A stretch of DNA of 64,000 bases from assembly GCF_003790525.1 (NCBI RefSeq), contig NZ_CP033632.1; one strand, 5' to 3'. Position numbers: made by a program. This DNA comes from Escherichia coli. GTDB taxonomy: Bacteria > Pseudomonadota > Gammaproteobacteria > Enterobacterales > Enterobacteriaceae. Positions 29,501 through 38,500 of this stretch are shown piece by piece (within the stretch, counting starts at the first letter, position 1; every line of letters begins with the position of its first letter).

Positions 29501-32500
29501 AGCGCCATCTGCAGGGCATCGCAGGCCAGTTGCGCCGTCATGCGTGGCGACATTGACCAGCCAATAACGGCACGTGACCACAGGTCAATGACCACTGCCA
29601 GATACAGCCAGCCTTCATCTGTACGTAAGTACGTGATGTCTCCTGCCCACTTCTGGTTCGGGCCACTGGCGTAAAAATCCTGCTCCAACAGATTTTCTGA
29701 CACAGGCAGGCCGTGTGCGCGGTAGCTGACCGGGCTGAACTTCCGGGAGGCCTTTGCCCTCAGTCCCTGACGGCGCAGGCTTGCCGCCACGGTTTTTACG
29801 TTAAAGGGGTAACCCTGAGCACGCAGTTCATCCGTCAGGCGTGGGGCACCGTAACGCTGTTTTGACCGGGTAAAAGCCGCGAGGACAACGCTGTCGCAGT
29901 GTTGGCGGAACTGCTGACGCGTGCTTATCCTTGTCCGCCGCTGACACCACGTATACCAGCCGCTGCGGGCCACCCGGAGCACGCGGCACATTGCTTTGAT
30001 GCTGAACTCAGCCTGATGTTTTTCAATAAAGACATACTTCATTTCAGGCGCTTCGCGAAGTATGTCGCGGCCTTTTGGAGGATAGCCAGCTCTTCATCCC
30101 GTTCTGCCAGCTGGCGTTTGAGACGTGCAATCTCGGTAGACATCTCCAGTTCACGTTCAGAAGACGTCTGCTGATTTTGCTGTTTACTGCGCCAGTTGTA
30201 GAGCTGTGATTCATACAGGCTGAGTTCACGGGCTGCGGCAGTAACACCGATGCGTTCAGCAAGCTTCAGGGCTTCACTGCGAAATTCAGGCGAATGCTGT
30301 TTACGGGGTTTTTTACTGGTTGATACTGTTTTTGTCATGTGAGTCACCTCTGACTGAGAGTTTACTCACTTAGCCGCGTGTCCACTATTGCTGGGTAAGA
30401 TCAGTAGTTCCTCCTACAAAATCCTCCTACAATACATCACGTTTTTGTTAATAAATCCATGGGATTACGAGAAGTTTGGAGCGGGGGTGATTTCCCTTCG
30501 CCCGCTCCAATTTATCTTCACCTCATCGGTAATGACTCCAACTTATTGATAGTGTTTTATGTTCAGATAATGCCCGATGACTTTGTCATGCAGCTCCACC
30601 GATTTTGAGAACGACAGCGACTTCCGTCCCAGCCGTGCCAGGTGCTGCCTCAGATTCAGGTTATGCCGCTCAATTCGCTGCGTATATCGCTTGCTGATTA
30701 CGTGCAGCTTTCCCTTCAGGCGGGATTCATACAGCGGCCAGCCATCCGTCATCCATATCACCACGTCAAAGGGTGACAGCAGGCTCATAAGACGCCCCAG
30801 CGTCGCCATCGTGCGTTCACCGAATACGTGCGCAACAACCGTCTTCCGGAGCCTGTCATACGCGTAAAACAGCCAGCGCTGGCGCGATTTAGCCCCGACA
30901 TAGCCCCACTGTTCGTCCATTTCCGCGCAGACGATGACGTCACTGCCCGGCTGTATGCGCGAGGTTACCGACTGCGGCCTGAGTTTTTTAAATGGCGGAA
31001 AATCGTGTTGAGGCCAACGCCCATAATGCGGGCGGTTGCCCGGCATCCAACGCCATTCATGGCCATATCAATGATTTTCTGGTGCGTACCGGGTTGAGAA
31101 GCGGTGTAAGTGAACTGCAGTTGCCATGTTTTACGGCAGTGAGAGCAGAGATAGCGCTGATGTCCGGCGGTGCTTTTGCCGTTACGCACTACCCCGTCAG
31201 TAGCGGAGCAGGAAGGACAGCTGATGGAAATGGAAGCCACGCAAACACCTTAAAATCACCATCATACACTAAATCAGTAAGTTGGCAGCATTACCGAAGA
31301 AGTGCGCTCAGCCTTCGACAGAGACATTACCGGACTTCACAAAAGAGTATTAATGTTCAAGGGCAATAGTGCAGACGTGTTCAACATGGGTGAGATCGTG
31401 GTACAAGTCAGGCAAAGTCATCTTCTTACGAATTACTATTTTGAGATTAACCTCAATTTTACCCTTCTTAATATCCCTGATTGTTATGTTTTCAATAATG
31501 TTTTTCTGCTGATGGATGCGTGTTATCAGATTTTCGAGTGCATCGCGTTCATCAAGAATAACCCGGACTTTTACTTTTCCGGGAAACTGATCTTTAGTCT
31601 GTAAGAAAATAATGAATGGACTTAGTTTGATTGCCAATAAAAATAAAGCCGTGGAAAAAAAAGCATGAAAGTAAAAACCAGCGCCACAGGTGATTCCCAC
31701 CCCGGCAGATGCCCAGACAATTGCCGCAGTCGTGAGACCTGAAATAGCATCGTCGTGTCGGTGCAGAATGACTCCCGCACCAAGAAAACCAACACCACTG
31801 ATAATCTGAGCCGCTAGGCGCATAGGATCGCTACGGATATTCATCGAAATTTCAGCATAGTATTCAGCAGATTGTATTGATACAACAGTTAACACACAGC
31901 TGGCTACAGATAAAATAACGCAAGTTTTGAAGCCGACTGGTTTCCCTTTCGATTCTCTTTCCAATCCTATAATACCACCCAGAATAAATGAAATGCTGAT
32001 TTTGATGATCGTAGTTAAAGGCAACAATCCTTGCTCATTGATGATGGCGGCCAGATTATTCATGCAATTACCTTAATGAAAAAAGTCTTTAACGATTAGT
32101 AGTGCGTTTTTTTCAATGGGAGATCTGCTTTGCGTTTTGAAATATCGTCCCGGAAGAATATCAGGAAGAATACGCTGACCACTGCGGCAACGCCTGCTGA
32201 AACCAGCCAAAATGTTTCCCATTGCGGTAACGCTTGTGGGCCTTGTTCCGTCACAGTGTTGTTAAATATTTGCCCGCATACGGTAGAGGCAAATAGCAAA
32301 CCGACGCCGTTCGAGACGATGAATCGTAAACTTTGGGCTTGCGCTTTAATCTCTGGCGCGGCTTTACGGTCAACATAAATGTCGCCCACGGTAAAGAAAA
32401 AGTCCCAGCAAAATCCCTGCAACATCAGACCGATCAGCACAAACATCATGTTGGCATCCAGTGATGCATGAGCAAACAACAGGGTGCGGATGATCCAGCA

Positions 32501-35500: not shown

Positions 35501-38500
35501 TTGCCCAGCCCTTCGACCGATGCGCTGAAGAAATTGTTACCCCACTTTTATCGTCAGACCGGCATTAAGGTTAATCTTGCGGTTTATCCGTATGATGAAG
35601 TTTTTGAAATTCTCTCTCATCTTCACTTGCACCCTTATTACGATTTACTGCGAATCGATATGGCGTGTTTTCCCTGGTTTGCAGAAAAAACATTATTACC
35701 GCTGGAATCGGTCTCCCCTGAGCTCCCGTTATTGCTGGATAACTTCTCTGAGCAACTTCAACAGTACTTCAGCCTGGTGAATGGGACTGCATGGGCAATT
35801 CCCTTTGATGCCAGTATGCAGCTTCTGTTTTATCGACGAGATCTGTTTGAAGATGCAACGATTAAACGGATGTTTTATGAATCCACAGGAAAAGAGTTAA
35901 CTCTACCAGAGAATTTCGCACAATTTGATGAGATTGCTACTTTCTTTAGTCAACGGCATCAGCCAAAAAATAAACAGCGTCCAATGGGAACTGCGGTAAC
36001 GTTGGGCAGTTCAGGACTTATTGCCACTGAGTACTTGCTGCGTTACTACGCGTTAGGTGGGCGATTGGTGCGTGAAGGCGAGCCGATACAACTTGATACT
36101 TCGCTTGCTGCCGTTGCACTCGAAGAATATCTACAACAGTTGCCTGTTGCCGTGAATATTGCCGGTGAGTGGTGGAACGATGCTGTTAAACAGTTTGAGT
36201 GTGGAAATCTCGCCATGCTGATTATGTATCTCAATTTGTTTAACGATGTTGCGCATACGACCATCGCTCCCACGATCGGCTATGCTCCCGTTCCAGGGCA
36301 GCTTCCACAATTGGGTGGTGGTTCTATTGGAATGTCTCGCTACAGTAAGAAGAAAAAACAGGTTGAGCAGTTTTTTCATTGGCTTTATTCCGATGAAATT
36401 TCGCGTCATCTGGTTCTGTTGGGGGGCAACAGCGCTTGGTCTGGAATATGTCACGATCAAAACGTTCTCAATCTCTACCCGTGGTTTAATTTACTGAATG
36501 AAAAAGGCATGAAGGGAATACGTGAGTCTCAGGGAAGTCAAGGTGAGCCTTTTAACCTGCGTCAGGCAGAGATTATCATTGGGCAAGGGGTGACGAATGC
36601 GATTAACGGCATTATGAACGTCAATCAGGCTGTGGAATATATCAATGCACGGATCAGAAACGAAACGGGGGCCTGAAAATGTGACACCTCGAGCCTGTCC
36701 ATCATTCGGTGTAAATGTCTTTCTCAGAAGTGACCGTCAGGGCGGTCACCGAATTCGATAATAAAGCGACTCATTACTATCCGCCAGTCCTGAAGTGGCA
36801 TCGTCCATTTCTGTGAGGCTGACTGGATAGCCAGCCACACCACTTTTTTCACCGATTCATCTGTCGGGAACACTTTCCGTTTCTTTATCGCATGTCTGAT
36901 GACGCTATTCAGCGATTCGATTGCGTTAGTGGTGTAGATAACCTTGCGGATCGCCTCCGGGTACACAAAGACGGTGGCAACATTCGGCCAGTTTGCCCGC
37001 CAGCTGCGACTTATCTGCGGGTACCGTGCATCCCATTCCTTCCCGAACGCATCCAGCGCCTGCAACGCGCCTTCTTCCGTGGCTGCGCGGTAAACCTGTT
37101 TCAGATCACGGGTTACCGCTTTATAGTCTTTCCACGCCACGAATCGCAGGCTGTTGCGTACCATATGTACTATGCACAACTGGAGCTGCGTCTCCGGGGA
37201 GACGGCATTAATCGCTTCCGGGAAGCCTTTCAGGCCGTCCACGCAGGCGATAAGGATATCGTTCAGGCTGCGATTTTTCAGTTCCGTCAGTACATTCAGC
37301 CAGAACTTTGCACCTTCATTTTCGGCCAGCCACATACCCAGCAACTCTTTCTGACCATCAAGGTTAATACCCAGAGCCAGGAACACCGCTTTGTTGATAA
37401 CCCGGCTGTCCTGCCGTACTTTCAGGACAATACAGTCAAGATAAACAATGGGATAAATCGCATCCAGAGGACAGTTTTGCTATTCAACAACCTAGTCGAT
37501 TACGGCATCGGTTACTTTCGATATCAGCGCCGGAGAGACGTCTGCATCGTACATTTCTTTGAAGACTGAGGTAATTTCGCGGGTAGTCATCCCTCTGGCA
37601 TACAGTGCCAGGATCTGGTTGTCCATGCCGGTAATGCGGGTCTGATTTTTCTTCACCAGTTGTGGTTCGAAGGAACCATCATGATCACGTGGAGTACGTA
37701 ATTCCATCGGCCCGTCGGTAGTGGTGACGGTTTTCGTGGAATTGAATCGCCACGGATAATTTAGACACTTCCGAGCCGTTGATAATACTGGTTTTCATAT
37801 TCTGTAGGTGACATCTGATCGCTGGAACCATGCCGACGCTTACTGTTATAAAACATTTCGATGTAATCAAAAATATCGCTGCGGGCTTCTTCCCGCGTTC
37901 CGTAGATCTTTTTCTTTATCCGTTCGCGTTTCAACAACTGGAAAAAGCTTTCTGCAACCGCATTATCATGGCAGTTACCGCGACGGCTCATGCTGCCCTC
38001 CAGGCCGTGTGATTTCAGGAACGACTGCCATTCATTGACTGCCCTGATCCGAATGAACCAGCACCTGTTTTTGGGGATTACGCCGCCATACAGCCATCAG
38101 CAGTGCGTTCAGGACAATGTCCTTTGTCATCCGGGATTGCATGGACCAGCCGATAATTTTGCGTGAGAACAGATCAACAACCACGGCAAGATACAGCCAG
38201 CCTTCGTGGGTCCTGATGTAGGTTATGTCCGTTACCCAACGCTTATCCGGAGCATCCGGATTGAACTGTCGCTGAAGCCTGTTGGGCGACACGATACTGG
38301 CCTCGCCTTTACGAGCCCGCGGGCTCCGGTATCCGACCTGAGCCTTTATCCCGATACGTTTCATCAGTCGCCAGACTCTGTTCACTCCGTACTGTTGCCC
38401 GCTGTCCCGCAGATCTAAATGGATTTTGCGATAACCATAGACGCATCCCGATTCCAGCCAGAACTGTTTAATCTGTCCTGTCAGTCTCAGGTCTGCCTGA

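Follow-up and report, generated by a model that had tools for sequence, protein, structure and literature searches.

A LacI-type regulator fused to a solute-binding domain and its predicted phosphodiester import and cleavage module on Escherichia coli plasmids

Import of an intact phosphodiester, its cleavage in the cytoplasm and, optionally, dephosphorylation of the product are the steps of two known scavenging systems, Ugp (UgpBAEC and the cytoplasmic glycerophosphodiesterase UgpQ) and the acc operon for agrocinopine in Agrobacterium; control is by a substrate- or product-sensing repressor, with PhoB or AccR as the regulator. Repressors of the LacI/GalR family (LacI, PurR, CcpA, and Cra/FruR) are canonically two-module proteins of ∼330-360 amino acids (aa), in which an N-terminal helix-turn-helix (HTH) and hinge are followed by a type-I binding-protein core that holds the effector pocket. 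A larger protein, the 675-aa Orf7 of Tn7090, has a LacI HTH and a solute-binding-protein (SBP) domain (PMC10383233). Tn7090, a transposon of Streptococcus pneumoniae BM6001 flanked by the insertion sequence (IS) ISSpn7, has been described by annotation only; it also carries an MgtC-family gene, and its authors' guess was Mg2+ uptake or adhesion (PMC10383233). Here, we describe a module of this kind in a 64-kb stretch of E. coli DNA (contig NZ_CP033632.1), hereafter the window. It consists of a gene for a 724-aa regulator and, divergent from it, an operon encoding a metallo-β-lactamase (MBL)-fold hydrolase, a major facilitator superfamily (MFS) transporter, and an MgtC-like protein. We propose, with moderate confidence, that the module serves the inducible import and cytoplasmic cleavage of a small polyol- or sugar-bearing phosphodiester or cyclic phosphodiester, under a repressor combining LacI and SBP domains that acts at two TTGGAACGTKYCAA operators.

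The four open reading frames (ORFs) of the module sit exactly where a preliminary description of this DNA had placed them, which confirms the divergent arrangement of regulator and operon that it proposed. Three genes occupy the minus strand. The first (33344..34168) encodes a predicted cytoplasmic PhnP-type MBL-fold phosphodiesterase of 274 aa, the second (32096..33331) a 411-aa MFS transporter, probably a proton symporter of the nucleoside:H+ symporter (NHS) family, and the third (31350..32063) a 237-aa MgtC/SapB-family membrane protein. The gaps between them, 12 and 32 bp, are as expected for one operon. The ORF of the LacI-type regulator (34502..36676) lies on the plus strand, across a 333-bp AT-rich spacer with a GC content of 0.36; GC content of the block is ∼45%.

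The three-domain architecture that had been read from the regulator sequence is upheld by Pfam, NCBIfam, structure prediction, and Foldseek. All three parts are on the plus strand. The LacI-type HTH and hinge (aa 1-57; 34502..34672) contain a PF00356 match at residues 3-46 (3.5e-13). The LacI-type core, a type-I periplasmic-binding-protein domain (aa 60-314; 34679..35443), is delineated by NCBIfam LacI-family models (FruR, CcpA, RbsR, TIGR02417, and others), which cover residues 3 to ∼210, by CcpA chains from the PDB, which align to about residue 245 (7e5w over 3-244), and by an AlphaFold2 model. Pfam Peripla_BP models give no match in this core, and Peripla_BP_1, Peripla_BP_3, and Peripla_BP_4 are recorded on homologues. 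The C-terminal CUT1-type SBP domain (aa 327-724; 35480..36676) matches SBP_bac_1 and SBP_bac_8 at residues 338-633 (PF01547, 5e-17; PF13416). In the AlphaFold2 model, built from 33 homologues with a mean pLDDT of 84.4, the HTH and hinge lead into a complete type-I core of two β/α lobes (60-310), which a disordered linker (315-326) joins to a type-II solute-binding fold that is also complete (327-724). As assessed by Foldseek, the C-terminal domain resembles the CUT1 sugar binders MalE3 (6dtq), Arad_9887 (5iai), and SmoF (7ofy), with a target TM score of ∼0.82, and no PDB chain spans more than one part of the regulator (query TM score of at most 0.47). The protein therefore shares the N-terminal HTH, the hinge, and the type-I core with LacI/GalR repressors, but it differs from their canonical plan by its length, by a core that is weakly conserved and unrecognised by Pfam in the window protein, and by an additional complete type-II (CUT1) solute-binding domain of ∼400 aa behind that core. 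With the CUT1/SBP_bac_1 binding proteins of ATP-binding cassette (ABC) transporters it shares the fold but neither the export signal nor the cognate ABC genes. Its N terminus is the DNA-binding HTH, with the SBP domain internal/C-terminal, and ABC permease and ATPase genes are absent from the window module and from the most closely related loci (type A, defined below).

This architecture is widespread. In a word-indexed search, 789 relatives were found among 8000 candidates scored; the best 120 of the 789 are nearly all ∼700-750 aa long and come from genera that include Klebsiella, Serratia, Proteus, Providencia, Pragia, Budvicia, Gilliamella, Paenibacillus, and Bacillus. When 1.84 billion cluster representatives were searched with a profile, 568 clusters (50% identity) were found at E<=1e-30, the best 150 almost all full length. 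A scan of one genome per species returned ∼45 full-length genes, including many in Clostridia as well as in Streptococcus oralis and Granulicatella, so that the architecture spans Proteobacteria and Firmicutes. No characterised member was found among solved structures or in the literature searched. The word "unusual", used for this regulator in the preliminary description, thus holds in the sense of uncharacterised but not in the sense of rare; nor is the C-terminal domain the normal extension of a LacI subfamily with a defined ligand, as no subfamily member has one. In RefSeq, the PGAP pipeline names the regulator "extracellular solute-binding protein", and other sources label close homologues CcpA, "multiple sugar transport SBP", or "LacI/PurR regulator". 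"Extracellular" is a misnomer for a cytoplasmic DNA-binding regulator, and amounts to a systematic annotation error in a large family. Once these mislabelled proteins are recognised as LacI-type repressors, their regulons can be computed from the predicted operator. The presence of type-I and type-II binding-protein domains in one repressor would be a natural case of a transporter receptor recruited as a cytoplasmic sensor, and such a fusion may be useful for biosensor design and for studies of allostery in the LacI scaffold.

We named type A the loci that combine a regulator at least 39% identical to the window protein with an MBL, an NHS-family MFS and, usually, an MgtC gene. In 13 of the 15 loci with a regulator at this level of identity, the regulator gene adjoins orthologues of the MBL (59-78% identity) and MFS (61-88%) genes. 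MgtC (39-71%) is present in 10 of these 13, and is missing from the Gilliamella and Budvicia loci. One of the two exceptions is Proteus penneri (L030), in which only ∼500 bp upstream of the regulator gene is covered, too little to judge; the other is Paenibacillus sp. J2TS4 (L032; 41%), which has a type C neighbourhood (see below) with a glycerophosphodiester phosphodiesterase (GDPD) and an ABC importer. The 13 loci, from Proteus, Serratia, Erwinia psidii, Budvicia, Gilliamella, Zophobihabitans, Paenibacillus, and Bacillus, are chromosomal, contain no IS, and lie in unrelated surroundings. Gene order is MgtC-MBL-MFS in Firmicutes, and the operon is convergent in Orbales. The MBL and MFS proteins are more conserved than the regulator. 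Judged by these neighbourhoods, the four-gene block is a conserved functional unit.

The neighbours of more distant full-length regulators (24-35% identity) were clustered and annotated, which distinguished types B-E. Type B loci encode a cytoplasmic GDPD and a PhnS2/T2/U2-like ABC importer, to which a Cof-type HAD phosphatase and MgtC may be added; 18 loci have the GDPD, and 22 the fused permease. In type C loci, a GDPD is paired with a CUT1-type ABC importer. Type D loci have a UgpB-like binding protein (NF008211, 7e-53), two permeases, and a small MBL of 228 aa similar to RNase Z, PhnP, and cyclic-nucleotide phosphodiesterases; MgtC may be present or absent. The loci furthest from the window module, type E, contain genes for sugar/polyol catabolism (DeoC, FGGY kinase, AP_endonuc_2, GFO_IDH, and Zn-ADH). 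PhnP-type MBL, GDPD, and small MBL are thus interchangeable, as are the NHS-family MFS and the two types of ABC importer. Since enzymes and importers are swapped between locus types, the common denominator is an importer with a cytoplasmic phosphodiesterase, to which a phosphatase is sometimes, and MgtC often, added. Mixed enzymes and importers under one regulator and operator would define a class of loci for phosphodiester utilisation that has gone unrecognised and that is spread by plasmids in E. coli and by a transposon in the pneumococcus.

Compared with the described systems, the window module is alike to Tn7090 in regulator architecture, in the presence of an MgtC-family gene, a phosphodiesterase, and an importer, and in its location on IS-flanked accessory DNA. 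However, Tn7090, the one type B unit to have been described, has a GDPD instead of an MBL-fold enzyme, a PhnS2/T2/U2-like ABC importer instead of an MFS, and an extra HAD phosphatase, and the two regulators are only ∼28% identical. A related S. oralis locus (L053), with the same gene types as Tn7090, carries a TTGACACGTTCCAA operator (see below). The import-then-cleave logic proposed here is that of Ugp and acc, and the sister loci contain UgpB-like SBPs and GDPD enzymes, whereas the window module has an NHS-type MFS, an MBL-fold enzyme, and a LacI-SBP fusion. No characterised pathway matches the operon.

The intergenic regions of related loci have in common a 14-bp palindrome with a central CG, for which the consensus is TTGGAACGTKYCAA; the Gilliamella copy, TTGGAACGTTCCAA, is a perfect palindrome. 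Two candidate operators (neither assigned to a strand) are present in the divergent spacer of the window module: O1 (TTGGAACGTGTCAA, 34228..34241) ∼60 bp upstream of the MBL start codon, and O2 (TTGTAACGTTCAAA, 34418..34431) ∼70 bp upstream of the regulator start codon. They are the only sites with at most two mismatches in the 64-kb window, for which shuffled sequences predict 0.24. The O1 14-mer recurs without change in the corresponding spacers of Serratia, Paenibacillus, Bacillus, and type B/C loci, and two sites are likewise found in the divergent spacers of Proteus, Serratia, Paenibacillus, and Bacillus, the second near the regulator gene. A set of 34 related loci, 593 kb in all, contains 35 sites where shuffles give 1.85, an enrichment of ∼19-fold, and 22 of the loci carry at least one. 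In the loci that were inspected, most sites closely precede either the target operon or the regulator gene. O1 in its reverse-complement form, TTGACACGTTCCAA, lies directly 5' of the first operon gene in type B/C loci (L010, L014, L015, L019, L020, L032, L034, L041, L050, and L053). We therefore predict that TTGGAACGTKYCAA is the operator through which the regulator controls the operon and, probably, its own gene, and we infer repression rather than activation. A 14-bp palindromic operator with a central CG, a gene divergent from a catabolic operon, and probable autoregulation are further traits in common with LacI/GalR repressors. No DNA-looping model is proposed, operator spacing varying from 72 to 192 bp across loci without constant helical phasing.

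Two minor observations concern these sites. The only Rfam match in the window is to the enterobacterial small RNA STnc240 (34177-34253, plus strand), which overlaps O1 and the 5' leader of the MBL gene; with 32.8 bits against a gathering score of 55 bits (E 0.047), it is probably a chance match and was treated as such. At the contig end of the Bacillus sp. ISL-4 locus (L007), two further operator-like sites at 13967-13980 and 14054-14067 (TTGGAACGTGTCAA and TTGGTACGTTCAAA) lie ∼1.2 kb upstream of minus-strand genes (10455-12791), one for a 5'-nucleotidase lipoprotein of the e(P4) family and one for the hexose-6-phosphate antiporter UhpT, each of which scores above its own NCBIfam cut-off. These sites may extend the regulon towards organophosphate handling.

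Which part of the regulator senses the ligand can be approached through its conservation. The HTH is the best conserved part (56-77% identity over all locus types), with a nearly invariant recognition helix (SHGTVSNVLN). The core is the least conserved domain, only P67, Y74, and E105 being kept across types A-D. Over the same types, many Trp, Arg, Asp, and Glu residues of the C-terminal domain are retained, among them D381, R384, D386, R445, D447, R456, E460, W557, W558, W627, W661, and R674. When a profile of 30 such domains was compared with the PDB, the top match was Arad_9887 (5iai, 1.2e-32), for which the ligand is ribitol (PMC8468352), followed by a trehalose/maltose-binding protein, the sulfoquinovosyl-glycerol binder SmoF, and 4rya (labelled sorbitol binding protein). 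The ligands of the nearest solved relatives are ribitol, polyols of the sorbitol type, α-glucosides, and sulfoquinovosyl-glycerol. With E-values of 1e-16 to 1e-22, the profile also matches UgpB-like SBPs from type C/D loci; in the PDB, UgpB was not reached at 1e-4. A specific claim that the domain is a UgpB-like glycerol-3-phosphate (G3P) sensor was for this reason dropped in favour of a polyol/sugar class. The C-terminal SBP domain is thus most likely the main ligand sensor, and the ligand would have a polyol or sugar part; that the conserved arginines of the domain would suit a phosphate is speculation.

The hydrolase aligns over its full length with E. coli PhnP (PDB 3g1p; 1e-14, 25% identity). 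It has the CxCxxC Zn site (C19, C21, and C24), the HxHxDH motif (H76, H78, D80, and H81), the distal ligands H151, D174, and H240, together with H243, and a histidine, H211, that aligns with the general-acid His of PhnP. None of these residues varies among 28 homologues, whose identity goes as low as 46%. In PhnP, His200 is the general acid and the Cys3-His site binds Zn; the corresponding roles here were assigned from the alignment. In structural models, the protein falls into the PhnP/RNase Z clade of phosphodiesterases. Its score against the PhnP equivalog TIGR03307 is 82.5 bits with a cut-off of 272.25, and phn genes are absent from the window module and from every related locus. It therefore differs from E. 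coli PhnP and from the PhnP-family diphosphatase 6b9v in lacking the phn operon context and in scoring below the equivalog cut-off. It is not a PhnP orthologue and belongs to a clade of its own, of ∼272 aa (MBL272), that is tied to importers. Names that databases give to homologues, "phosphoribosyl 1,2-cyclic phosphate phosphodiesterase" and "carbon-phosphorus lyase", are transferred by similarity only. All PhnP catalytic motifs being retained, the earlier assignment as a PhnP-like hydrolase, and with it hydrolysis of a phosphate diester or cyclic phosphate, is reasonable. Elsewhere, an MBL272-clade gene in Anaerobiospirillum adjoins glpQ and pgm, together with an NHS transporter, and in Paenibacillus lautus the clade occurs with a PhnS2-type ABC importer under a different regulator. 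In this P. lautus locus (L095), a 383-aa chimera (6809-7960) in which a GntR-type HTH is fused to a LacI-type PBP1 core is encoded directly 5' of the MBL272 gene and the PhnS2-type importer, another wiring of the same enzyme clade.

The transporter shares with NupG, XapB, and YegT 12 transmembrane segments, the MFS fold, a GxxxD motif, and conserved Arg, Thr, and Glu residues. In the PDB it is closer to YegT (8zoj, 2e-59) than to NupG (7dl9, 4e-45) or XapB. Against TIGR00889 it scores 262.7 bits (6e-78), under the cut-off of 446, and PF03825 is recorded on orthologues. Residues R134, T138, and E252 align with the NupG ribose contacts R136, T140, and E264 (PMC8042404), and the GxxxD proton site is kept (G306..D310, with D310 corresponding to D323 of NupG). 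Unlike these ribose contacts, the contacts of NupG with the base are replaced (Q261 by I249, Y318 by Q305, and F322 by W309). YegT itself shows no measurable binding of canonical nucleosides (PMC11979927). Because the base contacts are changed and YegT binds no canonical nucleosides, the NHS family label does not establish a nucleoside substrate; it does point to a moiety bearing a vicinal diol (furanose or polyol). Of the NupG/XapB-like permease for a nucleoside-derived compound that had been described, membership of the NHS family is probable, but YegT is the closer relative and the base contacts are not those of NupG.

The MgtC-like protein matches NF007431 over residues 18-234 (7e-32, below the YhiD equivalog cut-off) and NF011912 (9e-21), and PF02308 is recorded on its orthologues. 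MgtC genes are also found in type B and D loci, so that the family recurs in unrelated phosphodiesterase/transporter operons under the same family of regulators. In Hungatella hathewayi (L019), two tandem MgtC-family genes (16515-17920) end a GDPD and ABC operon located behind two operator sites, a duplication that underlines the functional tie of MgtC to the module. This recurrence places a family of debated ancestral function in a concrete context that can be tested.

The proposed import and cleavage of a polyol- or sugar-bearing phosphodiester would proceed as follows. The NHS-family proton symporter would import the compound, and the cytoplasmic PhnP-type binuclear-metal phosphodiesterase would open the diester to a phosphomonoester for central metabolism, with the MgtC-like membrane protein as a recurrent accessory of such modules. 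The regulator would hold expression off by binding, as a LacI-type dimer, to the two 14-bp palindromic operators O1 and O2, and ligand binding, most likely at the C-terminal SBP domain, would release it. Transport direction, sensing domain, and chemical class of the substrate are all inferred in this scheme. Several points weigh against it. Twelve of the 34 related loci have no operator match within two mismatches, and a scan for promoters and terminators gave no more sites than shuffles, so that no promoter is claimed. NHS transporters characterised to date carry, to our knowledge, neutral nucleosides rather than phosphate esters; the substrate may have to be a zwitterion or bear only a single charge, or the MFS may carry something else, such as the dephosphorylated product. 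No functional study of any member of the regulator family turned up in the literature searched, the sole description being the Tn7090 annotation. Finally, within type A, polar residues of the core at LacI effector positions are conserved (S124, C125, Y147, R148, and D242), and this core could be the sensor or a second sensor. One can accordingly imagine a two-input regulator, in which the SBP domain reads a moiety common to polyol-phosphate diesters, the LacI core reads a locus-specific signal, and MgtC links organophosphate uptake to phosphate/energy homeostasis; the common moiety may be, for example, a glycerol- or ribitol-phosphate unit from teichoic acids, capsules, or deacylated lipids. 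We regard this elaboration as improbable. If true, it would give the MgtC family a native function outside virulence and would reveal a new scavenging pathway that is widespread among bacteria of the gut, of insects, and of soil.

The substrate had originally been taken to be a nucleoside-derived compound or a ribosyl cyclic phosphate (a 2',3'-cyclic nucleotide, ribose 1,2-cyclic phosphate, or similar), opened after uptake by the PhnP-like enzyme. We find this unlikely, although several points favour it: the nearest characterised enzyme, PhnP, opens 5-phosphoribosyl 1,2-cyclic phosphate (PMC10574752), PhnP-like structures from Brucella have been solved with AMP or GMP bound, the transporter probably belongs to the nucleoside:H+ symporter family, with the ribose contacts of NupG in place, the Bacillus sp. 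ISL-4 locus adjoins the e(P4) 5'-nucleotidase and UhpT genes, and automatic pipelines name homologues "phosphoribosyl 1,2-cyclic phosphate phosphodiesterase". Against these points stand the replaced base contacts and the failure of the closer relative YegT to bind canonical nucleosides (PMC11979927), the lack of phn context, and the fact that nucleoside hydrolase, phosphorylase, kinase, or deaminase genes are found in 0 of the 13 type A loci. In addition, the closest matches of the sensor domain are proteins that bind polyols and sugars, and sister loci use a GDPD, which acts on glycerophosphodiesters, and UgpB-like or PhnS2-like ABC importers instead. These swaps of GDPD and UgpB-/PhnS2-like importers suggest a polyol or sugar phosphodiester rather than a nucleoside, and the "nucleoside-derived" part of the preliminary description is not borne out.

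The chemistry of the enzyme could also be other than phosphodiester cleavage, the MBL being a sulfatase, lactonase, or other hydrolase that cleaves an imported neutral glycoside-like or sulfated compound, with the regulator sensing a sugar. This is even more doubtful than a nucleoside substrate, as PhnP-specific residues are fully conserved, including the general-acid histidine H211 and the Cys3-His Zn site, and as the enzyme interchanges with GDPD phosphodiesterases and HAD phosphatases under the same operator. A module for Mg2+ homeostasis or virulence centred on MgtC (Mg2+ uptake, adhesion, or intracellular survival) would agree with the presence of MgtC and with the published interpretation of Tn7090 (PMC10383233). 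It has very little probability in our view: MgtC is dispensable in Gilliamella and Budvicia, so that the invariant core is regulator, phosphodiesterase, and importer; no family of Mg2+ transporters is represented in the module; and Mg2+ regulons are not known to be controlled by sugar-sensing regulators of the LacI type. Just as improbable is a signalling or immunity nuclease, akin to Apyc1, for the breakdown of cyclic nucleotide second messengers: an importer and a catabolic-type repressor accompany the enzyme, and PhnP-family structures are closer. A reading as an anti-phage system was rejected, since PADLOC gives no match and the MBL has no match to the Apyc1 Pfam family (PF23023) at E<=10.

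In E. coli, the module behaves as accessory DNA, as had been suggested: it is present in 45 of 5426 complete genomes, on a plasmid in 43 and on the chromosome in two (95-99% identity). The DNA of the window module is 100% identical to that of a set of E. coli plasmids, e.g. p1-H9 and pMTY9754_IncHI1B, and the 47 PLSDB plasmids that carry it are all from Escherichia. Outside this species, the closest relatives are chromosomal genes of Klebsiella spallanzanii and Klebsiella huaxiensis (84%) and of Pluralibacter (74%). The E. coli block is thus horizontally acquired accessory DNA, a passenger within an IS-rich region of IncHI1B-type plasmids. Two plasmid copies are damaged: in NZ_CP033251.1 an IS3-family insertion splits the module, and in NZ_CP063477.1 the match begins at query base 706, with most of mgtC gone. 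These copies are signs that decay of the module is ongoing in E. coli.

On the left, the module is flanked by an IS1 (IS1B-like; 30528..31295, minus strand, the start being approximate and assuming a 768-bp IS1), recognised by its InsA/InsB ORFs and by a terminal repeat (...ATCAGTAAGTTGGCAGCATTACC) that ends at 31295, 54 bp beyond the stop codon of the mgtC-like gene; in the identical plasmid pMTY9754_IncHI1B, PGAP annotates IS1B at this place. On the right, 48 bp from the module, lies a degenerate remnant of an IS256-family transposase gene (36724..37740, minus strand, end approximate; ORFs 36724-37386 and 37492-37707), which PGAP describes in the identical plasmid as "IS256 family transposase; internal stop; incomplete". 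In p1-H9 and in the chromosomal copies, IS1 is missing from the same junction, and a fragment of PT-VENN, a pre-toxin domain of contact-dependent inhibition, is found there instead (11411-11812 in L001; ∼5300-5750 in L092 and L094). On the E. coli chromosome, the copies (regulator 96% identical) are located in an island that also contains this PT-VENN fragment and debris of IS66 and a group II intron, which suggests that the plasmid segment was lifted from such a chromosomal island. IS1 is a later, secondary insertion, and the module reached IncHI1B-type plasmids together with the island flanks. A composite transposon is not demonstrable, the flanks belonging to different IS families and IS1 being absent from the junction elsewhere; no search aimed at target-site duplications was made. 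To call the module IS-bounded, as the preliminary description did, was therefore an overstatement, the more so as loci in other genera have no IS.

Two further genes lie in the surroundings of the module. To its left, a hypothetical protein of 292 aa (28245-29123, plus strand; WP_000794337.1 in identical plasmids) is isolated between IS1, IS3, and other IS elements, and a D...(V/I)QIK motif in the N-terminal half of the protein recalls PD-(D/E)xK nucleases. To its right, between an IS3 remnant and IS421, there is a Hok/Gef-family toxin gene (39377-39532, plus strand; so annotated in identical plasmids), an ordinary plasmid addiction element.

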